Shown here: positions 1-12,599 of the stretch, piece by piece
How positions within the stretch are numbered: the stretch's first letter is position 1
Layout of the letters: each line of letters begins with the position of its first letter
Source: Escherichia coli
GTDB taxonomy: Bacteria; Pseudomonadota; Gammaproteobacteria; Enterobacterales; Enterobacteriaceae
Direction: 5' to 3' (one strand)
NCBI RefSeq assembly: GCF_041886205.1
Contig: NZ_CP169029.1
DNA length: 64,000 bases
The notes under the pieces: generated by a model
The model's database searches: none
What the model saw: the letters and a program-made list of their open reading frames with translations, nothing else
What the model was told of the DNA's origin: nothing
Position numbers and translations under genes: made by a program

Positions 1-651
1 GCTCAAGATATCGGTAAACTGCATTCATCGAGGAAAGTCTCGCCAGATTGGTATTCCAAGTTACCAATCCCTTGGAACAAAACTGTTACTTGGATCGATA
101 GTTCGAGCCCTAATGAAGCAGGTGCAGAAGAACATAAGGGTAATGGTCGTTACTATAATCAACGAGAAGTCCGGCTACTGCTAGAGGCTTTGCAGTCATT
201 GTCGAGTGATGGCTGCATTGCACAGCTTGAGCAAACTATTACCACAGAACAGCCATATCCTATTGGTATAATCACAATGTATCGTCAGCAAAAAGAGGAA
301 ATTGACAATGCTATCAGTCGGGCTGAATGGGCTGCATCGTTACGTGGTTTGATCAAGATCGATACCGTTGATTCATATCAGGGCCATGAAAACAAGATAA
401 TTATCCTCAGTCTGGTTCGCGATAATCCCAACAAACTACAAGGTTTCCTGCGCGACGCGCCGCGAATAAACGTTGCTATTTCGCGAGCTCAAGAAAGGTT
501 ATTGATTCTGGGAGCAAGGCGTATGTGGTCAAAGACCAATAATGATTCAGCACTTGGAAACGTTCATGAATTTATTAGTAAACAGGTTGCAGTAGATGAA
601 CCCAACTACCAAATCCTGTGTGGTCAAAGTCTGCTTGGAGATAACAACTAA
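1..651 (+). CDS. SF1 (Upf1/DNA2-like) helicase, C-terminal part only; 5' end lies upstream of the window
   Basis: Frame 1 is open from position 1 to the stop at 649-651. Translation carries helicase C-terminal motifs (DTVDSYQGHE, INVAISRAQERLLILG) resembling the C-terminal helicase core. Confidence 0.6.
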   Translation, partial: AQDIGKLHSSRKVSPDWYSKLPIPWNKTVTWIDSSSPNEAGAEEHKGNGRYYNQREVRLLLEALQSLSSDGCIAQLEQTITTEQPYPIGIITMYRQQKEEIDNAISRAEWAASLRGLIKIDTVDSYQGHENKIIILSLVRDNPNKLQGFLRDAPRINVAISRAQERLLILGARRMWSKTNNDSALGNVHEFISKQVAVDEPNYQILCGQSLLGDNN

Positions 652-2198
652 TGTCAGAACCACGTCTGGGTAATCTGATTACCGTTTTACTACCTGCGCG
701 TAGTTACAAGATCAACTGCGCTTTGACCACTGAAAAACTGATGCCTGGAATTGAACAGTTTGCATGTCGCTTGCTGCTGATTTTTGATCAACTCTATCCC
801 AGCGAGTTACAGAATTACTTTGGTCTAACTGATCGTGAGCGAGAGGTATTGCTTGATGGGTTGCTGGCTAACAGACTGATCAACATTAATCCTGATGGGC
901 ATATTGAGGCTAGCTCATTCCTACGTAAGCATGCAGCTAATAATGGTGGGAAGCCAAGTTTAGTTAAATATCAAGAATGTACGGAGGAAGTTGCATTCGA
1001 TCTACTAACTCTTTCGATATGTAAACCGCAACCAAATCGTCGTTTTACTTCTGGACTGCCAGAGCTATTGCCGCGGCATCAGATCGGGGGAGATGCTGCT
1101 GCGGTAACAGAGGCTTTTAGTTCCCAGTTTAGGCACCATCTTTTGCTCAGCCGCAACAGCGAGTATGAGCGTCAACGGACTAAATTATATAAGATAATGG
1201 GCTGTAGTTCGCATGAGATGGTGCAGCTCCCAATAGAGATAGAGGTTAGCTACGGTGTTTCTGCTGGGAGCATTGAGCCGCAGAAATTTACTCGTTCCTA
1301 TGAATATTTAGGTAACACCCGGCTGCCGCTTTCAAACGAGCTGGAAGCTCATATCGCAGATTTTTTGGGAGAACATAAACTAGATGAATTCGGTATCGAC
1401 TGTGAAGATTTCTGTAAACTAGCAAATGATAAAGTGTTGTTACAATTTGCTAATGGTTATAAGTTCAACTATTCCGGCTGGATAGAGGCTCGTGAACAAC
1501 GTAAAACTGGCTACGGTACTTCATTGACTACCGGCATGTTAGGGGCTGTTTATTTGCCGCACAATTCTAAGCTGTTCATTAGTATGTTGCATAATGCATT
1601 ACGTGATTATATAGGTAAAACAGCTCCAAAAGCGCTGTGGTATAGCAGTAAAGTACCACTGTGGGGAGCTAATGGTAGTCAACTTTCGCGTTTTACTCGC
1701 GCTCTAGGCGATATACTTGGCAATTATGCCGATGATAAGATTGCTCGCATTTCGCTTTTACACTCAAGTGCAGATGAAGGTGAAAAACGTCAAGAGCGTA
1801 AGCGGCACTTAGGTCGTTTTCCTACCGGTATTGGCCTTACTTCAGAGGCTAAATTTGATCGTTTGGAGATCCTCTTAATTCCTGATGTGATTGCTTTGGT
1901 GCAATACCACGGTCAACCTAATTCTGATAGTGCATTAACCCTGCCGATTGGTTATATAACTGTTGAGCCAGAGCGTTTAGAATTACTTAAAAAACTAATG
2001 ATTAAGCGAACTGAAGGGGCTGTTGCAACCATTACTTGGTCTGAATCAAAATTTGAAAATTTAGCTTCGCTATTACCTGTTGAGTTTCTGATTAAACTGA
2101 ATAAGAAAAGCGGTGAAGATGTGGATGCTGCAATAAAAAAAATGCAGATCTATAACCGTGCTGAAACCGCACGGGCAATTTTATCGCTACGCAAGTAG
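651..2198 (+). CDS. Hypothetical 515-aa protein, translationally coupled to the upstream helicase
   Basis: ATG at 651 overlaps the helicase stop (TAATG); GGAG 13 nt upstream. Long uninterrupted ORF with no catalytic motif I can recognise. Confidence 0.6.
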   Translation: MSEPRLGNLITVLLPARSYKINCALTTEKLMPGIEQFACRLLLIFDQLYPSELQNYFGLTDREREVLLDGLLANRLININPDGHIEASSFLRKHAANNGGKPSLVKYQECTEEVAFDLLTLSICKPQPNRRFTSGLPELLPRHQIGGDAAAVTEAFSSQFRHHLLLSRNSEYERQRTKLYKIMGCSSHEMVQLPIEIEVSYGVSAGSIEPQKFTRSYEYLGNTRLPLSNELEAHIADFLGEHKLDEFGIDCEDFCKLANDKVLLQFANGYKFNYSGWIEAREQRKTGYGTSLTTGMLGAVYLPHNSKLFISMLHNALRDYIGKTAPKALWYSSKVPLWGANGSQLSRFTRALGDILGNYADDKIARISLLHSSADEGEKRQERKRHLGRFPTGIGLTSEAKFDRLEILLIPDVIALVQYHGQPNSDSALTLPIGYITVEPERLELLKKLMIKRTEGAVATITWSESKFENLASLLPVEFLIKLNKKSGEDVDAAIKKMQIYNRAETARAILSLRK

Positions 2199-2412
2199 CA
2201 TTTATATTGCAACGAATAAATTTTTCTAGGTTGCTATGAACTAGCTAAAGGGCAACAAATAGATAAACGGCGTTATTCATGTCAAATGAGATAATGTTAA
2301 ATTGATAGGGATTTATACCCCGCCGGCCATTTTGAATGGTCGGAGTTGTTATAAACGTTAAACCGCCCCGGAAATCCTGGAGACTAAACTCCCTGAGAAA
2401 GAGGTAAACAGG

Positions 2413-2739
2413 ATGACTAAAAATACACGTTTTTCCCCCGAAGTCCGTCAACGGGCAGTTCGTATGGTTCTGGAAAGTCAGGGCGAATATGACTCACAAT
2501 GGACAGCAATTTGTTCTATTGCCCCTAAGATTGGCTGTACACCGGAGACTCTGCACGTCTGGGTACTCCAGCATGAGCAGGATATTGGGGGCGGTGATGG
2601 TGGTTTCACCACCACTGAACGTCAGCGTCTGAAAGAGCTGGAACGTGAAAATCGTGAACTGAGCCGCAGTAACGATATCCTTCGCCAGGCTTCCACTTAT
2701 TTTGCGAAGGCGGAGTTCGACCGCCCCTGGAAAAAATAA
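2413..2739 (+). CDS. IS3-family transposase OrfA (IS629 OrfA-like, 108 aa)
   Basis: Translation MTKNTRFSPEVRQRAVRMVLESQGEYDSQW...LKELERENRELSRSNDILRQAS matches IS629/IS1203 OrfA as I recall it. Confidence 0.75.
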   Translation: MTKNTRFSPEVRQRAVRMVLESQGEYDSQWTAICSIAPKIGCTPETLHVWVLQHEQDIGGGDGGFTTTERQRLKELERENRELSRSNDILRQASTYFAKAEFDRPWKK

Positions 2740-3118
2740 TGCCACTGCTGGATAAGTCGCGTGAGCAGTACGGGATCGGACCGGTATGCAGTGAACTGCA
2801 TATTGCCCCGTCAACGTATTACCACTGTCAGCAACAGCGACATCATCCTGATAAACGCAATGCCCGTGCGCAGCGTGATGACTGGCTGAAGAAAAAGATA
2901 CCGTGCGTATACGATGTGCGTAAAGTCTGGCGTCAGTTGTTTCGGGAAGGTATCAGAGTGGCCAGATGCACTGTGGCACGTCTCATGGCGGTTATGGGGC
3001 TTGTCGGTGTTCTCTGGGGTAAAAGGTCCGCACTACCGTCAGCCGGAAAGCCGTTGCCGTAGACGACCGCGTAAACCGCCAGTTCGGGGCAAAGTCGTGG
3101 GTGGCTGATTTTACTTAC
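2739..3118 (+). pseudogene. IS3-family transposase OrfB, truncated and frameshifted
   Basis: Begins MPLLDKSREQYGIGPVCSELHIAPSTYYHCQQQRHHPDK like IS629 OrfB, but is short of a few residues versus the recalled sequence, stops after 107 aa, and continues in another frame (RQFGAKSWVADFTY) before homology ends. Confidence 0.6.
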
Positions 3119-3690
3119 GGTGTGCCCGGAGTTCAGGGTGAGCACGGATGCTGAAATGAACCATGAGTCTGTCTGGAATATGGAACAGATAACTCATGAC
3201 GAGAAGCCCAACAATCCCACCGGGTGTGACTGTGGTGAACCTGAGCGACTGTGACCTGCGGCATTCCCTAAGGATGATGTAACCCGCTGACAACGGGGAT
3301 TGAGGCGAGATCACTAAGCCGAGATGATCCTCAAGGTTGAGTGCTGAAAGGCTGAAGAACATGAACCCGTTAATCCGCCTCTGTGGGCTGAAAACGTCAC
3401 CACGGCCTACATGATCTGACAGGTCGTGCAGAAGTAACTGTCTGCGACACGTATGCGCGGGTCAGTCAAAGGTGTTCTGACATGTATGCAAAACACCGGG
3501 ACAGCAACGCCTATCACGCTCACGTTGCTGACTTCTGTCAACTTGCGGCAAGCAAGGACAAAGAGTGCGACGGGCAGCCTCCTCAGTATGTATGAGTTCA
3601 GACAGGTGAACTGGGGAAGGTCAGCGACGGATGTTAAGGAGGCAGTAAGCGTCAACGGAGCACCGTATTGACGCTTATTTATTGGTGAGA
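3119..3690 (+). mobile_element. Candidate group II intron 5' fragment (domain I-like structured RNA) inserted in the IS OrfB remnant; no intron-encoded protein ORF
   Basis: Starts GTGTGCCCGGAG...GGGTGAGCACGG immediately after the IS OrfB FTY codons, resembling the GUGYG...GGGUG start of bacterial group II introns. GC-rich, non-coding in all frames. Group II introns are known to target IS elements in E. coli. Confidence 0.25.
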
Positions 3691-3698
3691 ACTACGTT

Positions 3699-3900
3699 TC
3701 ATGGCAGGAGTTCGTCAACACGGTTGGATAGTAATGCACGGCTCAGTTCGACACCCTGTCGGGCAAAGATTTCACTCTGACGATACAGTGGCAGGTGTTC
3801 GCAGTATTTTCCCGTTAACACGCGGGCAAGTAATCCGGGGCCGCGATACCACGCTCTATCGGGCAGGACGGCGCCAATGATAGCATTTATACAAGCAATT
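3699..3900 (-). pseudogene. IS66-family transposase (TnpC) internal fragment
   Basis: Minus-strand translation ...GLLARVLTGKYCEHLPLYRQSEIFARQGVELSR... matches the conserved HLPLYRQSxIxARQGV block of IS66 TnpC, then hits a stop. Far too short for an intact gene. Confidence 0.45.
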
Positions 3901-4227
3901 CTGGGAGCTTATAGATTGTGTGCAAAACTTTTGATAGCAGGAGGTTACAACAGTATTGATGAAAAAGATCATTCAAATCGATTTATATATTTTGTTAATG
4001 TTATCTGTTTTCAATCTAATAACCACGAATATAGCTAATTATAGGATGATTACTAGTTTTGCTACCCTATCAACCAAACGTTCACCGGACATTAGAAAAC
4101 ATGGAAATTTCTTGTTTTTAAATGCTTTTTACACCAATAGAAAAATTTACATTCCAAAATCATTAGTCTTTGCGTAATCAAAAGATGTAATGGTTTTTTT
4201 CCTTACTACTTCTAGATAATCCGCCCA

Positions 4228-4345
4228 CTACAGCAACATCAACTTACGCTCATCTAAATGCTCCGCCTTATGGATATAAGCTACCCGCACTGAATTACAT
4301 TCCATGCGGCTCATCAGACGTCCAGTTGCTTTACTGTCTTCAGGG
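4228..4345 (-). pseudogene. P4-type integrase 3'-terminal fragment (remnant of an older island)
   Basis: Minus-strand translation ...ATGRLMSRMECNSVRVAYIHKAEHLDERKLMLL* aligns with the C-terminus of the intact integrase at 11064..12326 (...AVERQMSHQERNGVRAAYIHKAEHLEERRLMLQ...). No upstream catalytic region. Confidence 0.5.
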
Positions 4346-4584
4346 GGATGCTCTTGTAATCCCAACCTCTCGTGCTTTCTGAGCATAACACATCCATGTT
4401 GCTGCGATTATCTCTTAAACCCGTCCTTACCATTTTTATTGATACGATAAGGAACCTTCATCATACATGATCGATTTTGTCGATCGATTCGATCGAATTT
4501 TCTCTTTTTACCCTGTCTTTTACATGGTTTTAAAATAAGCACCCCATTTATTGTTCGGGGAAAGTGATAGCAGAGGTAACTGAA

Positions 4585-5313
4585 ATGAAAAAGATTATTG
4601 CGGTTTCAGCACTTGCTGTGGCAGGCATGTTTTCAGCCCAGACCCTGGCTGATGAGAGCAAAACAGGCTTTTATATGACCGGTAAGGCGGGAACTTCCGT
4701 TTTATCTCTTTCCAACCAGCGTTTTGTCGAAGGTGAAGGAGAGTGGGCGGACAGATACAAAGGTGACGATGACCATGATACGGTATTCAGTGGCGGTATT
4801 GCGGCCGGTTATGATTTTTATCCGCAGTTCAGTATTCCGGTTCGTACAGAACTGGAGTTTTACGCTCGTGGAAATGCTGACACGAAATATAATCTTTATA
4901 AAGACGACTGGTCGCGTGGTGACCTGAAGAACGAGGTGTCAGTCAACACTCTGATGCTGAATGCGTACTATGACTTCCGGAATGACAGCTCATTCACACC
5001 ATGGGTATCTGCAGGGATTGGCTACGCCAGAATTCACCAGAAAACAACCGGTATCAGTACCTGGGATTACGGGTATGGATACAGTGGTCGTGAATCGTTG
5101 TCACGTTCAGGCTCTGCTGACAACTTCGCATGGAGCCTTGGCGCGGGTGTCCGCTATGACGTCACCCCGGATATCGCTCTGGACCTCAGCTATCGCTATC
5201 TTGATGCGGGTGACAGCAGTGTGAGTTACAAGGGCGAGTGGGGCGATAAATATAAATCAGAGGTTGATGTTAAAAGTCATGACATCCTGCTTGGTGTGAC
5301 TTATAACTTCTGA
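4585..5313 (+). CDS. Outer-membrane beta-barrel protein (OmpA-like/opacity-type family), 242 aa
   Basis: Signal peptide MKKIIAVSALAVAGMFSAQTLA, alternating aromatic/hydrophilic beta-strand pattern, C-terminal ...LLGVTYNF ending in Phe. The ORF-track start at 4564 is probably an upstream extension. Confidence 0.7.
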   Translation: MKKIIAVSALAVAGMFSAQTLADESKTGFYMTGKAGTSVLSLSNQRFVEGEGEWADRYKGDDDHDTVFSGGIAAGYDFYPQFSIPVRTELEFYARGNADTKYNLYKDDWSRGDLKNEVSVNTLMLNAYYDFRNDSSFTPWVSAGIGYARIHQKTTGISTWDYGYGYSGRESLSRSGSADNFAWSLGAGVRYDVTPDIALDLSYRYLDAGDSSVSYKGEWGDKYKSEVDVKSHDILLGVTYNF

Positions 5314-5390
5314 CGACACTGCTTCTGAATGATAATTGCGCATATTTCTGCAATTAAGATAATTACGTATTTCTGTAATTAAAAAGGAAC

Positions 5391-5435
5391 ACCCTGCAGT
5401 AATATTATACTGCAGGGTTGTCTGTTATCTGCTTT
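5391..5435 (+). terminator. Putative rho-independent terminator after the outer-membrane protein gene
   Basis: Perfect 11-bp inverted repeat accctgcagta/tactgcagggt followed by a T-rich tract. Confidence 0.4.
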
Positions 5436-5488
5436 ACAGGATATTTCTGATTTTTATTATCTTATTCTCTTTATATTAAGATATTTCG

Positions 5489-6988
5489 ATGAGTATCATA
5501 AAACTATTTTTTCCGGACAATACATCCCGAATTTTATTGTTTTTATTCTTTTTTGTTGTTTCTGTCATAACCACAATTGCATGCGGATACACTGAGAAGA
5601 ATACCACCGGGAATGTGTTGCTGCTGTTCTTTCTTCTGCTTCTTGCACACAGAAATACCCTCACATCCATTACAGCGCTGTTATTTCTGTTCTGTTGTGC
5701 ACTGTATGCGCCTGCCGGTATGACGTACGGTAAAATCAACAACAGTTTTATTGTCGCGTTGTTGCAGACCACGGCTGATGAGGCAGCGGAGTTTACCGGG
5801 ATGATTCCTGTTTATCATTTTCTGGTCAGTGCCGCGATTCTGGTATTCATGGTGATTTTCTGGCGAACACACCACCGCGGTCACCGTAACTGGCTGGCAC
5901 TGCTGCTATTCGTATTATGCTCTGTAAACAGCTGGCCGTTGCGGATGGTTAAAGGAACCGTTGTGGGGACAACTGACACATTGCGTGAAATGCAGCGTTA
6001 TAAACAACTGAGTCAGCACGGGGCTGACAGCTGGAAAATCCTGCCGGGTGTACCGTTGTATGACACGATTGTTATTGTTACTGGTGAGAGTGTGCGCAGG
6101 GATTATATGTCGGTATATGGCTATCCCGTGCCAACCACACCGTGGCTGAATACTGCTCCCGGTTTATTTATTGACGGCTATACATCGGCAGCAGCCAGTA
6201 CCGTACCTTCCCTGAGCCGGACACTGATTTATGACTATGAGCAGAACCCTGATTCCGGCAACAACGTGGTGGCGCTGGCAGCAAAATCAGGATACAGCAC
6301 ATGGTGGATATCCAATCAGGGAAAACTGGGAGAGCATGACACACGCATCTCTGTTATTGCTTCTGATGCGGAGCATACCGTTTTCCTCAAGAAAGGCAGC
6401 TTCGCTTCCCGTAAAACGGATGATATGTTGTTGTTACAGGAAACAGAACGTGCGCTGGCGGATACATCCTCTCCGAAGGTGATTTTCCTGCACATGATTG
6501 GCTCTCATCCGAATCCGTGTGACCGACTTAACTCCTGGCCGAATCATTACCTGGAGCAGTATCCCCGAAAGATTGCCTGTTACCTCGCCAGCATCAGTAA
6601 ACTGGATAACTTTCTCGGTCAGCTTGATGGTATCCTTCGCCGGCATTCCCGTCATTTCGCCATGCTTTACTTTTCTGACCATGGACTGTCGGTCAGCGAC
6701 AGCGCTAATCCTGTTCATCATGATGGTCATGTGCAGGGAGGCTACAGCGTTCCCCTGATTATTACCGCCAGTGACATCACGTCTCATCAGTCCGTCAGCA
6801 GAAAAATCAGTGCCCGTCATTTCGCAGGTATTTTTCAGTGGCTGACCGGCATTCGTACTGAAAATATACCGCCATTCAATCCGCTGACAGACGAAGATAA
6901 TGAACCCGTTATGGTTTTTAACGGGGAGAGGAATGTACCGGCAGACAGTCTGAAACCGCAGCCTCTGATTCTTCCGGACAGAAGATAA
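5489..6988 (+). CDS. Sulfatase-family phosphoethanolamine transferase-like inner-membrane protein (EptA/YhbX-like), 499 aa
   Basis: N-terminal multi-span hydrophobic region followed by a soluble domain with sulfatase-like signatures (IVTGESVRRDY, HMIGSHPNPCDRL). Exact start codon uncertain. Confidence 0.65.
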   Translation: MSIIKLFFPDNTSRILLFLFFFVVSVITTIACGYTEKNTTGNVLLLFFLLLLAHRNTLTSITALLFLFCCALYAPAGMTYGKINNSFIVALLQTTADEAAEFTGMIPVYHFLVSAAILVFMVIFWRTHHRGHRNWLALLLFVLCSVNSWPLRMVKGTVVGTTDTLREMQRYKQLSQHGADSWKILPGVPLYDTIVIVTGESVRRDYMSVYGYPVPTTPWLNTAPGLFIDGYTSAAASTVPSLSRTLIYDYEQNPDSGNNVVALAAKSGYSTWWISNQGKLGEHDTRISVIASDAEHTVFLKKGSFASRKTDDMLLLQETERALADTSSPKVIFLHMIGSHPNPCDRLNSWPNHYLEQYPRKIACYLASISKLDNFLGQLDGILRRHSRHFAMLYFSDHGLSVSDSANPVHHDGHVQGGYSVPLIITASDITSHQSVSRKISARHFAGIFQWLTGIRTENIPPFNPLTDEDNEPVMVFNGERNVPADSLKPQPLILPDRR

Positions 6989-7096
6989 TCATGTCGGTAT
7001 GAATGTTATAATTAAGGACCGTGCAATAATAGCCATTCCATTCAGCCATCTTACGCTCGAAAACAATCGATAAGATGGCTACTCACCATTCCTGCT

Positions 7097-10000
7097 CTAA
7101 ACCTGACGCCTCTCAAGACTATTATAAATAGCCTCAATCTCACCCTTCAGGTTATCACCGCAATAAACCATTGAGGTATCGTATCGTTCATATCGCGCTT
7201 CCCGTGTCGCACTAAACCAGTTGAACGATCCCACGCACAGCAAACCATCATCACCAATAACAATTTTGCTATGAACACGGTTTACCAGCTTTGTAGCAAT
7301 ACCCAGCGCATTCAGTTTCTCCAGCGCCGCTTTAAAGTTTTGCTGCTTCTCTTTTCGCTTCTCAAAATCATTATGTTCAGTGTTGTAGCTTCTGTCAGTG
7401 ACTATCGTGACGTTAATTCCACGTGAACACGCCGCAATCATGGAATCAAGAAAACCTGTTTGCTCCAGCCTTTGCCAGGTCAGCCATGGAGAAACTATCG
7501 TGATGTGTTTACTGGTATTTTCAAATGTCTGATTCAGGAAATTATCATGTTGCTCCACACCATGAAGTGTGTAGATTTTGGTCCCGGAGGTTTTTAAATC
7601 CTTACGCTCTTTATAATCAAAAGAGAGCGCATTCTTCTCTGACTCAAAGAGGTATTTTGCCAGTAATCCCCGTGGAGATGAGGCTGGCTGGACCTCAAAC
7701 AGGTCCATATCGCCGAAGACCAGAAAACTGTCCTTCGCACGGGAGACTGCAACATTCAGCATGCTGTTATCGCTATCAATAAACCCGCCGTCTTCATGTT
7801 TTGAATAGACTGGCGAGAATATCACAATCGCTCTTTCCGCTCCCTGAAGAGAGTGCACGGTGCCCACTGTGAGCGACTTTTCATTCGAGCCTGTACTGAT
7901 ACCTTGTTTGCCCAGCGCCTGTTTGATAGTGGATACCTGAGCGCTAAAAGGCGTCACGATACCGACAACTTCATGAAGCGATTTACCGTAATGCGCTTCA
8001 ATATTTTGTTGGTTCTCTGCCAACCAGACCGCTATCGTTTCAGCCTCAAGCAAATTATATCGACTTCCACTACTTGCCAGCTCTCCTTTACCATCAATAT
8101 GGAGATACCCCATTGCGGGCATTAAATTGCTCTCTTCACGCCCTCTTTTAGGCAACAACTTACCGTGATAGCAGAGCGTATTACAGTATCCAATAATATT
8201 GTCGTAGCACCGGCGGTGTTCATATAGGGACATACCACGAGCCAGTTCGGGATCATATTGATAGCGCGAAGCAAACTGCGCTATTTTCATAACGCTGCCA
8301 GATGCGGCACTTTTACCAAGGTCTGCGATTGCCGTATATTTCTCGGTAATCTCTTCTTGCGTACTGCCAGACAGAATTTTTTCCGCCAGCATGTTACCGA
8401 CATCAATCGCAGGAGCAATACTCCATATTGGCGGGAGCTGCTCCGTATCGCCAATCACTAATGCCTTCTTAGCTAATGCAAACGAGGCAGCAGCCACTTC
8501 AGGAAGCACCTGCCCGGCTTCATCGACAATGAGTAAATCGGCAAAATCATACAAATAACTTTTCTCGAATTTACGCTGTCCTTTGTGCTCACTTATCTGC
8601 ATATTGCCGGGCAGCATATAGCATGTCATCACCACACATGGAGTGAGTTTCATTCGACGTTGCCAACGGGCAGTTACCCCTTTAGCGCCTTTTTTCTTCT
8701 TCTCTTCCTGCAGATCATCAATGCTGGCCATATCCATCAGCCAACGACCTTCCCAGTAGTGAGTCGTCAGTAAAAATGCAGGGAAGCGAATCTGCGTATC
8801 AGCCAGTTCATCGGCCTGTGAGAAGCTCAGTTCCTCGTCGCCCTCATACCCTAAATTAAGAGCCAGTCTCTGCCACTCCTGAACCGCCTGCTGTTCTTTA
8901 AGAATGATTTCATGGGCGGAATCAATCTGCTGCCGGTATGTTGTTTGCTCGCGCTCAGCGGAATTGAGCAGCCCATCAATATTACGTTCGATAGTTTCAG
9001 GATCAGACCACTGATTTCCTGCAATCAGCGCACCTAATTTATCTTCGAGAAACAGCTGTATTTGGTACTGTCGCTTACTGCGAACCACCGGGAGCCAGGA
9101 AAATAATGAATAGATCAGTGATTCACCGGCGCGATATTTTTTCCATTCCGTTTTAGCACTTTTCAGTAGAGTGATTTTTTGTTCTTGTCCGGAAAGTAAT
9201 TTATTTAAATTATCGAGATATTGCTCAATGTCGTTAGCAATAAGCTCACGCGCAGCCCGTACCTGGCTTAACGTTTGCCATGTTGCGTTCAGTCTTATCA
9301 GTTGCTCGGATTTTGCTGCCAACTGACCATGCAGGAGTTCAATGACCTTTTCAGGGGATGAACAATCTTTTTCAGGAAAGGCTGCCTTAGCCTTCTCCAG
9401 ATAAAACAGCAGTGCATCCTCTACATACTCTTTTGACTCAACCTGGTTGAAGAAATCTTCAGTTTGATATTTTTTGGCTGCCTCAGCTTTACGAGTGCTT
9501 GAGGGAAAATAAGCGCCGAAGCTTTTCAGCTCAGGTAACCATCGTCCGGCCATTGCACCAGTGCCCTGTGAAAAATCTTTCCCGAACGCTTCGATAATGT
9601 TCGTTACAGCCTGGTTGTTCGTTGAAGTCGCGATAATTACCGGAGGCTCAGATTTTTCGAGAGCCGCTCTGGCCCACTGCGTGGCGATGATAGAAAGCAC
9701 CAGCGTGGTTTTTCCGGTTCCCGGAGGTCCATTAACAGCAAGGATATCGCCATGTCTTGCATCCAGAAAATGGCTTAAGGCATCGCGCTGAGCCTTTGCC
9801 AGCGGAAACTTATCTCCGGAGTGTCCAAGCCTGTCGCTGAATTTTGCGCCTGGGGCCAGCAAAGACTCTGCAGCATGAACCTCTCGCGAGGCGAAGCGAT
9901 TGAAGAGCGGCACAACCTTCTTGCAAACAAGCAGGTGATCATAAAGAGAAAGGATATGGAAACAGGCACCGCCAGATTGCGCCGTTTTAACAATATAACC

Positions 10001-10612
10001 GTGCTCAGCGAGTTCATATTGCTCAGGATTTTTAATCCAGTCGCCGGCAACGTTCTTCAGCAGCCTCTCTGAATCATCCAGATATTGACGCCACTCCTGC
10101 TGCAAGGCTGCATATCGTGCTTCCCGTTCTTCATCCGTTTCGGCAGTCTTATCAATGCCGTCATCAAAGTTGATAGAGAACGAGGTATGGATTGTCTTGT
10201 ATTTGTCATACTGCCCAATCTCACCAATCGAAAATGCTCCTTTTGGCAAAGGTTCAAGCAGGTCTCTGGGAATGGAGGTCGCTGGCGTCGGATATAAAAA
10301 ACCCTCACGGCTTAGCAAGGCTGGCGTCACTATCGGGGTAACAATATCAGGCGCGCCTGCGGAACGGTCCTTACCATGCTGCAGTAACCGGAAATAAACT
10401 TTTGGGCGCAAGATGACATCGACCGTTTCGACATCGTCTTTTTCTCCCTTAAAAAATTTACTGACAATCGCTTCGTCAAGACGTCCCGCCGCTATCCCAT
10501 GCCAGTGAGTGAAATTTTTGGCGTCTTTCCGTTCAAAACTGCCCTTTCCTGACTCAGCATCCGCAAGCGAGTTGCGCCAGTATGAGGTAAACCCTAAAGC
10601 ATTTTCATCCAT
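7097..10612 (-). CDS. SF1 helicase (Upf1/DNA2-like) fused to a C-terminal PLD-family (HKD) nuclease domain, 1171 aa; candidate single-gene antiphage defense protein
   Basis: Walker [15 protein letters not shown]; Walker B/motif [11 protein letters not shown]; [11 protein letters not shown]; C-terminal helicase motifs [14 protein letters not shown] and [16 protein letters not shown]; C-terminal [19 protein letters not shown] is an exact HxK(x)4D(x)6GSxN phospholipase-D motif. ATG at 10612..10610 with AGGA upstream. Confidence 0.75.
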
Positions 10613-10665
10613 TACCAGTCCTGTGACTCAATGAAATCCATTGATTTATCGAATATAAAACCACC

Positions 10666-10688
10666 ATATGGACAACTATTGTCCATAT
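10666..10688. promoter_or_regulatory. Perfect 10-bp inverted repeat (atatggacaa-cta-ttgtccatat) 54-76 bp upstream of the helicase-PLD start; candidate operator
   Basis: Palindrome read directly from the sequence, located in the upstream region of the minus-strand gene starting at 10612. Confidence 0.3.
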
Positions 10689-11009
10689 TGAAAAAATTGG
10701 ATGCAATGTTTTGTTTATAATTCGATATCAAATGTACTGGTTGTACAAGGTTCAGAACACAAGCACATTCAACAGTACGTCAGGACTATTGATTTCATAA
10801 CAGTGAATACATTTTTTACCGTTTATAATGACTGCCTGTGTTGGACAAGGATACCAGAACAGCCGAAAACACCGGGGGTTATTACCTGCTCTCATGGAAA
10901 CCAGATATTCCTGGTGCTAATCACAGTCATAAATAGCCTGAAGAACATGACGAAGGGACTTTAATGGACGCCGGAGTAACTTGCCAGAACATCAATCTTC
11001 GTCATCATT

Positions 11010-11060
11010 TACAAAGAAAAATAATCAGTTAAAGCAGTCCGGGCTGATTGCCCGGACTGC
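11010..11060 (-). terminator. Putative rho-independent terminator downstream of the integrase
   Basis: Perfect inverted repeat gcagtccggg/cccggactgc immediately after the integrase stop, followed on the minus strand by a T-rich tract. Confidence 0.45.
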
Positions 11061-11063
11061 TTA

Positions 11064-12326
11064 CTATTTTAATGGATTGTTAATTTTTGCATATTCAAAC
11101 GGACTGATACCCTTCTCCCGGTTCGCATCCAGAAAATCGGCCCACCATTGCAACATCAGTCGCCGTTCTTCCAGATGTTCTGCTTTATGGATATACGCAG
11201 CACGTACACCATTACGCTCCTGATGGCTCATCTGACGTTCCACAGCATCGCGGGACCACAAACCTGATTCAATCAATGCACTGCACGCCATCGCCCGGAA
11301 TCCATGGCCACAGACATCCTGGGTTGTGTCATACCCCATCACCCTCAGGGCTTTATTTACAGTATTTTCACTGATTGGTTTACGCGGGTCATGTGCTCCC
11401 GTAAAGATCAGACCATTTTCACCAGCCCATGTCTGTAGTTCTGCCAGTATGGCTACAGCCTGTTTGCTGAGTGGCACAAGATGTGGTGTTCGCATCTTGG
11501 AGCCCCGGTGTGAGAATTTTACGCCAGGCAGAGGTTCGCGTTCGGCTGGAATAGTCCACATGGCATTGTCAATATCAATTTCAGACCAGCGGGCGTATCT
11601 GAGTTCACTGGAACGAATAAAAACCAGTAAATTCAGCATAACTGCCAGTCGGGTGACAGGCTGGCCTTTATAACCGTCAATACGCGACAGAAGTTCAGGC
11701 AGGCGTGAAAGATCCAGTGCAGGGCGATGCTGGCGTTTTACCGTGGTCAATGCACCAGCCATATCCAGAGCCGGGTTATATCTGATGATGCCAGACTGTA
11801 CGGCATAACGCATTACAGCAGATATTCTTTGCTGCAGACGACTGGCGATTTCATAAATTTGTTTAGCTTCTGCAGCACGAACAGGGATAAGCAGGTCCGG
11901 GGTACTGAGTGTTGTGATATCCCGGTTGCCGATAAAGGGGAAAACGTGTGTCTCGAGGCTTTTGAGTACTTTATCGCTGTGTGATTGTGCCCATTGTTTA
12001 TTACTGGCATGCCAGCGTCGTGCAATATGTTCAAAAGAGAGTTGTAAATCAGGGACTACTTTTTTAGCTCTTTTCAGTTCGCAAGGGTCAATCCCCTCCG
12101 AAATCAGTTTTCGGGCCTCATCCCGTTTTGTACGAGCTTCGGAGAGAGAAACTTCTGGATACACACCAAGTGCCAGAGTCTTCTCCTTACCCAGAATACG
12201 ATAACGGAGACGCCAGTAACGGGAACCATTAGGATGAACCAGTAGGAACATGCCAGCCCCGTCAGTGAGTTTATAAGCCTTGTCAGTGGGCTTTGCAGCC
12301 CGGATTTTTGCGTCAGTCAGTGCCAT
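11064..12326 (-). CDS. P4-type phage integrase (tyrosine recombinase), island integrase next to tRNA-Phe
   Basis: Translation from the internal Met: MALTDAKIRAAKPTDKAYKLTDGAGMFLLVHPNGSRYWRLRYR... (typical P4-family N-terminus); C-terminal catalytic region with HGFRAMA...YIHKAEHLEERR. The ORF-track start at 12389 is an upstream extension. Confidence 0.85.
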   Translation of the reverse strand: MALTDAKIRAAKPTDKAYKLTDGAGMFLLVHPNGSRYWRLRYRILGKEKTLALGVYPEVSLSEARTKRDEARKLISEGIDPCELKRAKKVVPDLQLSFEHIARRWHASNKQWAQSHSDKVLKSLETHVFPFIGNRDITTLSTPDLLIPVRAAEAKQIYEIASRLQQRISAVMRYAVQSGIIRYNPALDMAGALTTVKRQHRPALDLSRLPELLSRIDGYKGQPVTRLAVMLNLLVFIRSSELRYARWSEIDIDNAMWTIPAEREPLPGVKFSHRGSKMRTPHLVPLSKQAVAILAELQTWAGENGLIFTGAHDPRKPISENTVNKALRVMGYDTTQDVCGHGFRAMACSALIESGLWSRDAVERQMSHQERNGVRAAYIHKAEHLEERRLMLQWWADFLDANREKGISPFEYAKINNPLK

Positions 12327-12486
12327 AGTATAGCCTTCTGAATGCGTTAAAGAGGGTACAAATTCTGTCGAACTGGGGTATGCCCGCAATTATACCCACA
12401 CAATGGGGTTGATGTGGGGGGAATCTGGTTGAGTTCGGTAGAATTGATTTGTAGGTAGAACGCTTAAATTGTGGCGTTCTGAAACG

Positions 12487-12523: not shown

Positions 12524-12599
12524 TGGTGCCCGGACTCGGAATCGAACCAAGGACACGGGGATTTTCAATCCCCTGCTCTACCGACTGAGCTATCCGGGC
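12524..12599 (-). tRNA. pheV: tRNA-Phe (pheV locus by synteny with yqgA-speC)
   Basis: Reverse complement reads GCCCGGATAGCTCAGTCGGTAGAGCAGGGGATTGAAAATCCCCGTGTCCTTGGTTCGATTCCGAGTCCGGGCACCA, the E. coli tRNA-Phe sequence including CCA. Confidence 0.95.

Follow-up and report, generated by a model that had tools for sequence, protein, structure and literature searches.

Probable remains of three nested mobile elements, an IS629-like element, a group II intron and an IS66-family element, downstream of mkoB in Escherichia coli

The window analyzed here is a stretch of 64,000 nucleotides of E. coli chromosomal DNA. It carries a tRNA-Phe gene which, from the E. coli map, we take to be pheU, and all the DNA to the left of about 12.5 kb is taken to be an island integrated at this gene. 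A second copy of the 3' end of the tRNA-Phe gene, that is, an internal attachment site, was looked for and is absent from positions 1-12400. In this part of the window MkoA and MkoB make up a Mokosh type I system according to PADLOC, and debris of mobile elements sits directly 3' of mkoB, between the Mokosh I genes and MkoC. The features referred to below are the following.

190-651: MkoA, C-terminus (PADLOC model, E=2e-53)
651-2198: MkoB (PADLOC model, E=1e-61)
2359-3119, plus strand: IS629-like element of the IS3 family, left ~60% only, with the left inverted repeat at about 2359-2383
2413-2739, plus strand: orfA, intact, 327 bp, 108 aa, helix-turn-helix transposase accessory protein
2694-2810, plus strand: ALIL pseudoknot (Rfam RF01497), stimulator of the programmed -1 frameshift of IS3-family elements
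2739-3119, plus strand: orfB', the 5' third of the transposase gene (Pfam HTH_21, E=9e-11)
3120-3644, plus strand: class A group II intron of the E.c.I4 type, of which the 5' 525 nt (23%) are present
3645-3728, minus strand: right end of an ISEc23/ISEc43-like IS66 element, with the terminal repeat GTAAGCGTCAACGG... and the last tnpC codons
3713-3875, minus strand: piece from inside tnpC that holds HLPLYRQSEIFARQGV and the start of the DDE domain
3866-3876: putative deletion junction, at the microhomology GGAC[G/A]GCGCC, where tnpC meets the island module that follows (four-way alignment)
7097-10612, minus strand: MkoC, Mokosh type II protein (PADLOC model, E=0)
12524-12599: tRNA-Phe gene

We read the segment 2359-3875, about 1.5 kb in length, as the inert remains of three nested mobile elements, an IS66-family element inside a group II intron inside an IS629-like element, and we put the probability of this reading at roughly 0.93. 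Its composition, its boundaries and the comparison of empty and filled sites given below are direct observations. A first-pass annotation made from the sequence alone had placed insertion-sequence debris at 2356-3900; the debris is real but its limits are narrower, the IS starting at 2359 and not at 2356. The IS matches are far above chance (BLAST E=0). None of the remaining parts of the IS629-like element, the intron or the IS66 element is present anywhere in the 64-kb window and therefore none of the three can move. The debris is incapable of transposition, splicing or retrohoming, and orfA is its sole intact coding unit. Four independent complete genomes share the arrangement up to 3875, strain ZYB39 has the full arrangement as well, and this recurrence rules out an assembly artefact. 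Positions 2200-4400 are 99.95% identical to the ZYB39 chromosome, in which the tRNA-Phe gene is followed by dicD, dsbD and cutA and then by the groES/groEL region. The outer-membrane-protein gene of ZYB39 is split by IS100 whereas the copy in the window is intact.

The outermost layer, 2359-3119, aligns with positions 3-795 of a 1310-bp copy of IS1203 at 88.1% identity, and its identity to copies of the IS1203/IS629 family lies between 88.1 and 89.5%. By the ISfinder convention, copies that bear the same IS name share roughly >90-95% nucleotide identity. On these figures the element falls below the naming level with respect to IS629 and IS1203, and IS629-like appears to be the right term for it. 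With gaps counted as differences, its identity to the orthologues in strains 222 and SC516 is 97.4%, and positions 2361-2383 match, in inverted orientation, the right repeat that the strain 222 copy carries. This stretch was found by megablast in 3789 of the 5426 complete E. coli genomes. As in IS629 and IS1203, there is a left inverted repeat, an orfA of equal length, an A-rich slippery site with the ALIL element, and an HTH_21 region. The first-pass annotation had recognized an IS3-family, IS629-like element with an intact OrfA, and this was borne out because OrfA matches Pfam HTH_Tnp_1 (E=1e-9) and is identical to OrfA of IS1203 at 96 of 108 residues (89%). The gene is preceded by a plausible ribosome-binding site. 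The start of orfB at 2739 overlaps the stop codon of orfA and the ALIL pseudoknot, which scores 107.3 bits (cut-off 50, E=3e-28) over its full length of 1-117, spans this overlap; thus both the orfA/orfB overlap and the frameshift signal are in place.

Unlike orfA, orfB is damaged. An alignment with SC516, 222 and IS1203 shows three lesions relative to IS1203: 21 bp are deleted in frame at 2914/2915, the loss of 1 bp near 3020 causes a frameshift, and 12 bp are missing at 3092/3093. The 21-bp and the 1-bp deletions are common to the orthologues in SC516 and 222 while the 12-bp deletion is specific to the lineage of the window, and all of them fall within the first ~127 codons. The gene then ends at WVADFTY (TTTACTTACG), roughly at codon 139 of about 295, which is the first Asp motif of the transposase. 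Pfam finds HTH_21 in orfB and no rve (DDE) domain. Unlike IS629 and IS1203, the element has no DDE region beyond this motif and no right inverted repeat, neither the sequence of orfB downstream of 3119 nor the right repeat being found in the whole 64-kb window. The earlier conclusion that the element cannot transpose is therefore correct. Its diagnosis of OrfB was correct in part, because the small deletions and the frameshift are there, but a large internal deletion is not the main lesion: the intron interrupts the gene at 3119 and everything downstream is lost.

The homology to orfB ends abruptly at 3119 (...GGCTGATTTTACTTACG) and the bases that follow are GTGTGCCCGG, so that the next segment opens with GTGTG. 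In the intron-less orthologue in strain SC516, TTTACTTACG is followed directly by TCAGCACATGGCAGGG (beginning TCAGCAC), whereas in strain 222 and in the window it is followed at the same site by GTGTGCC. In strain 222 orfB is broken at this same base by a 2271-nt intron encoding ltrA, and domains V-VI at the end of this intron are recognized by the Rfam model Intron_gpII with 64.9 bits. At the 3' splice junction of that intron, ...CTCTAC is followed by TCAGCACATGG, and the exon resumes with TCAGCACATGGCAGGG, exactly where SC516 continues past TTTACTTACG. The comparison of the empty site in SC516 with the filled site in 222 fixes the insertion site of the intron to the base, and the GUGYG 5' boundary is located exactly at the known homing site. 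It has been reported that E.c.I4 targets specific positions in the transposase genes of IS629, IS911, ISEc16 and ISEc31 (PMC3522654). The fragment in the window, which occupies the same IS629-type homing site and has the same GTGTG start, is collinear with nt 1-524 of the 2271 nt of E.c.I4-7 of E. coli 55989 with 89.7% identity; E.c.I4-7 (NC_011748, 4789689-4791959), to which the intron in strain 222 is equal, is one of the copies that Leclercq and Cordaux 2012 list in their Table S3 (PMC3522654). E.c.I4 is the Zimmerly database name of a bacterial class A intron, which that paper catalogues in Enterobacteriales. The naming rule allows up to 10% nucleotide divergence (<=10%) from the reference intron (PMC3522654), and E.c.I4-7 itself is 99% identical to the E.c.I4 reference. 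At 89.7% identity, just below the 90% naming line, the fragment is a borderline case and would be better described as an E.c.I4-like variant than as canonical E.c.I4. Four truncated copies, E.c.I4-tr1 to E.c.I4-tr4, have been catalogued in mobile elements, including islands and plasmids (PMC3522654).

Unlike E.c.I4, the divergent fragment in the window retains 23% of the intron and has neither domains V/VI nor the reverse transcriptase ORF. Intron sequence beyond nt 524 was not found within the window. In strain 222 the start of ltrA is at about intron nt 672 and the fragment in the window stops 147 nt before it; therefore the catalytic domains, the reverse transcriptase/maturase and the region that this protein binds are all missing from it. 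A permissive Rfam scan of 2000-4600 gave no group II (Intron_gpII) match and no sign of domains V/VI, which is expected because even in a full-length copy only the domain V/VI model is recognized and those domains are absent here. The ORFs in the fragment, 3111-3362 on the minus strand and 3453-3671 on the plus strand, have no Pfam match. By eye, UGUAA at 3282-3286 was spotted as a candidate EBS. Judged by the usual sizes of intron domains, the fragment would be essentially domain I.

The innermost layer is what remains of the IS66 element. Positions 3645-3728 correspond to the terminal 84 bp of the element and are 95.2% identical to the ends of ISEc23 (ATCC 43896) and ISEc43 (55989). The terminal inverted repeat, opening with GTAAGCG, is present at one end only, at 3645. 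The junction at 3644/3645, which was read from the alignment with an uninterrupted intron, is one where intron sequence ...GTTAAGGAGGCA, ending in GGAGGCA, is directly joined to GTAAGCGTCAACGGAGCACCG. So clean a transposon end suggests that the element was inserted here and that the junction did not arise by random breakage. Its other end is deleted and so only one flank of the insertion remains. The second piece, 3713-3875, is 94.5% identical to positions 4918-5081 of L002. In the ISEc23 copy the two pieces map 849 bp apart, which amounts to an 849-bp deletion, and in the window they overlap by 16 bp at 3713-3728. At this overlap the donor sites share an imperfect direct repeat of about 17 bp (ATCAACTCGGTTGGAAGG and GTCAACCCAGTTGGAGAG). 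The ORF at 3699-3821 on the minus strand, which reads MLTGKYCEHLPLYRQSEIFARQGVELSR..., matches positions 13-48 of the 284 positions of the DDE_Tnp_IS66 profile (E=3.2e-9); since it spans the deletion junction, its C-terminal residues come from another part of TnpC. This ORF is the short minus-strand IS66 TnpC fragment that had been noted at the outset, and as stated then it cannot transpose. In ZYB39 PGAP labels the internal tnpC piece as an IS66 family transposase that is frameshifted and is missing the N- and C-terminus. The resemblance to ISEc23/ISEc43 lies in the GTAAGCG terminal repeat, the 94-95% identity and the conserved HLPLYRQSEIF block in the tnpC frame. The difference is that the remnant in the window is only 231 bp in two pieces of tnpC with the 849-bp deletion between them; it has lost one terminal repeat, the genes tnpA and tnpB, and tnpC sequence for the N-terminal part of the protein.

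At the right junction, homology to genomes of the E62 type begins at 3866 and homology to IS66 stops at 3875. Strain FDAARGOS_1262 matches through 3875 and then runs on in tnpC. To the right of 3875 the window has the sequence that lies just upstream of druA (Druantia) in E62 and PSUO2, and in E62, PSUO2 and the window this sequence precedes an integrase remnant, the outer-membrane-protein gene and a phosphoethanolamine-transferase gene. From the alignment we infer that the GGAC(G/A)GCGCC shared at the crossover is the signature of a microhomology-mediated deletion. The 3875/3876 junction is present in 1 of the 5426 complete genomes (ZYB39) while the arrangement up to 3875 is present in four strains. 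The same left side, with Mokosh I and the IS, adjoins different DNA in 222, SC516, FDAARGOS_1262 and the window, and the right-hand module, from 3866 onward, adjoins the Druantia operon in E62 and PSUO2. Thus the proposal that the debris marks a junction between two island modules is supported, because the DNA on the right side varies among strains and the module is found elsewhere next to Druantia.

Based on these findings we infer the following order of events. An IS629-like element would first have entered the pheU island just downstream of mkoB, and its orfB would then have gained inactivating lesions. An intron of the E.c.I4 type may next have entered orfB by retrohoming at its customary target, behind ...GATTTTACTTACG and at the codon that comes next after the first catalytic Asp motif WVADFTY. 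An ISEc23/ISEc43-like element would then have inserted itself at nt 525 of the intron by transposition, and either before or after this insertion 849 bp of tnpC was probably lost by recombination between short direct repeats. Subsequently, the remainder of the IS66 element would have been lost in a deletion at the ~10-bp microhomology, together with the 3' 77% of the intron and, from the IS629-like element, the 3' two-thirds of orfB and the right inverted repeat, and the same deletion would have joined the debris to the adjacent island module. Further point mutations would have built up thereafter.

The orthologous IS is found in three states, empty in SC516, with the common intron in 222, and with the divergent intron in the window, ZYB39 and FDAARGOS_1262. 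The mkoA-mkoB flank is 100% identical between the window and 222, and positions 2359-3049 of the IS differ from 222 and SC516 by one 1-bp indel only. The introns of the window and 222 differ at 54 of 525 positions, and by its sequence the intron in the window belongs to a different sub-lineage of E.c.I4. A tentative explanation, which we consider somewhat less probable than its negation, is that a single dead IS629-like copy at the orthologous position was invaded on separate occasions by two lineages of E.c.I4, ~10% divergent from each other; the intron in the window would then not simply be a decayed copy of the one in strain 222. That SC516 carries the same IS without an intron is in keeping with this. 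The intron in the window is most closely related to the orthologous fragments of FDAARGOS_1262, EcPF14 and SCU-101 (97%). The next relative, at 95.1%, resides in a different IS3-family host on plasmids of chicken-associated E. coli, which also argues for separate invasion, and its reverse transcriptase is frameshifted. All of these nearest relatives (95-97%) are inactive. When six intron copies were folded together with RNAalifold, the differences between the lineages were predicted mostly to preserve pairs, with two compensatory pairs among them, as separate invasion by another lineage would have it, and several pairs were broken in one sequence. By our reading of the alignment, and not by a tool count, the row broken at 70:88, 129:165, 131:159, 139:151 and 140:150 appears to be the window copy. 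This predicted pattern fits a divergent lineage that was once functional and decayed later.

Against separate colonization stands the finding that the divergence begins about 70 bp upstream of the intron. These 70 bp, 3050-3119, are unusually divergent from the orthologues, with 9 substitutions and a 12-bp gap relative to 222 and SC516, and import of exon plus intron by homologous recombination fits such a tract at least as well. The intron and the adjacent exon may therefore have come by recombination with another IS::intron copy and not by retrohoming, although no donor IS::intron copy with the exon changes of 3050-3119 was found among the 5426 E. coli genomes. The divergence of this tract makes it uncertain whether the IS decayed first and the intron came later. 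Should separate colonization be correct, it would mean that IS copies go on serving as targets of group II retrohoming long after their inactivation and that an older sub-lineage of E.c.I4 survives only as fossils.

Returning to the reading of the segment as inert remains, a second alternative is that the remnant still has a function, either through orfA and its frameshift signal, which would regulate transposition of the IS629 family in trans, or through the 5' fragment of the intron, which would act as an RNA. The full-length orfA with its plausible ribosome-binding site and the perfectly scored ALIL element could be taken in favor of this. However, survival of a 327-bp orfA in a young remnant requires no selection, and constraint on it is undetectable because the orthologous copies are about 99-100% identical. 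The intron fragment, for its part, has neither the catalytic domain V nor the protein-ORF region and, as read from the alignment, seems to carry pair-breaking changes specific to the window. We consider retained function very improbable. Three other matches in the segment were dismissed as due to chance, and for the sequence around all of them homology already provides an explanation. They are CRISPR-DR8 at 3273-3306, with E=0.36 and 20.6 bits where the cut-off is 39, snoZ185 with E=0.63, and, in an ORF of the minus strand, Pfam DUF5420, which with E=0.021 does not reach the cut-off.

The least probable alternative, and one that we give hardly any credence, is the two-element model in which OrfB is internally deleted and is followed by an anonymous spacer and, ~600 bp further on, by an unrelated IS66 TnpC fragment: the small deletions and the frameshift in the retained orfB and the genuine IS66 fragment agree with it, but the absence of any orfB after 3119 in the window makes this a truncation and not an internal deletion, the spacer is a 525-nt E.c.I4-type intron plus the IS66 terminal repeat, and the comparison of empty and filled sites refutes it as regards both the spacer and the nature of the OrfB lesion. 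Thus the gap of ~600 bp that had been described is real, but it is made up of the 525-nt intron and the terminal ~54 nt of the IS66 element, which had both been overlooked. The view that several elements hit this spot in succession is supported, while the third layer and the composite nature of the IS66 piece had been missed.

The value of reading the segment as three nested layers is mainly for annotation. In the RefSeq genomes that carry the intron fragment PGAP has no annotated feature across it, and because the fragment is unannotated the IS remnant is easily misread as one with an internal deletion. The three layers also give exact breakpoints for a variable junction of the pheU defence island, and the debris illustrates how the remains of IS elements mark points where island cargo has been exchanged. 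The debris itself is ordinary, since all three families and nesting of this kind have already been documented, and it reveals no new type of element and no new mechanism. E. coli ATCC 43896 and 55989 have the same three families nested in one another but in a different order: there, IS629 with its E.c.I4 intron is inside the IS66 element (ISEc23), whereas in the window the IS66 element is inside the intron, which is inside the IS629-like element.

The island to the left of the tRNA-Phe gene, which we take to be pheU of the E. coli map, carries two Mokosh anti-phage systems, one of type I and one of type II and within 10 kb of each other, that were recognized with PADLOC models and whose proteins are labeled in RefSeq only as 'AAA domain-containing protein' or 'hypothetical protein'. 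These systems, the integrase remnant that lies between them, and the tRNA gene are as follows.

190-2198, plus strand: Mokosh type I, consisting of the C-terminus of MkoA (E=2e-53) and MkoB (E=1e-61), from PADLOC models
4147-4329, possibly to 4386, minus strand: integrase C-terminal remnant, mid-island, from the PGAP annotation in ZYB39
7097-10612, minus strand: Mokosh type II, MkoC (1684 bits), from PADLOC models
12524-12599, minus strand: tRNA-Phe

To the right of tRNA-Phe, ZYB39, the closest genome, has the core E. coli chromosome, namely, dsbD, cutA, dcuA, aspA, groES/EL, efp, frdABCD, and ampC. If the gene order of ZYB39 is extrapolated beyond 12.6 kb, then 12524-64000 of the window would likewise be core chromosome and island sequence would be confined to the leftmost ~12.5 kb. 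Within the island, the integrase remnant, labeled by PGAP in ZYB39 as 'integrase; internal stop; missing N-terminus', appears from our own reading of the translated ORF to be of the tyrosine-recombinase (P4-like) type, and its presence suggests an older island boundary. A search of positions 1-12400 for a repeat of the tRNA-Phe 3' end near this remnant gave no match.

The integrase remnant, an outer-membrane protein, and a phosphoethanolamine transferase make up a module (3866-7000) that was compared with its counterparts in strains E62 and PSUO2. Because this module is adjoined in E62 and PSUO2 by the Druantia druA-D operon, in place of the Mokosh type I system and the IS debris of the window, the cargo to its left is exchangeable. 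The outer-membrane-protein gene (4564-5313) is whole in the window and is split by IS100 (istA/istB) in ZYB39 (locus L001, 8386-11073). The window must therefore derive from a strain that is related to ZYB39 but distinct from it and that is absent from the 5426 complete RefSeq genomes.

The junction of the 849-bp tnpC deletion in the IS66-family remnant (3645-3875) is also found in two comparison loci, L003 (6446-6674) and L012 (5602-5833), and the IS66-family copies that carry it are 5-10% divergent from that of the window. Both tnpA and tnpB are retained in the strain 222 copy with this deletion. The 231-bp form is present in a single place in a total of 63 genomes, counting matches to at least 80% of the query. 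This distribution would reflect either repeated deletion between the direct repeats or the spread of a non-autonomous derivative.

Next to the intron, the terminal 70 bp of the 5' exon (3050-3119) differ from the orthologous IS copies by 9 substitutions and a 12-bp gap, and the 691 bp before 3050 differ from them by one indel only. The divergence of this tract runs on into the intron, and it is possible that it arose by recombinational import or by co-conversion with the intron. The E. coli genome collection showed no intact copy of this intron sub-lineage. Among near-full-length copies, the one closest to the window's variant, at 95.1% identity, is on the plasmid NZ_LR882059.1 (locus L013, 3613-6306); its reverse transcriptase is frameshifted, and its host is a different IS3-family transposase gene with the exon end ...GATATTACGTATA.
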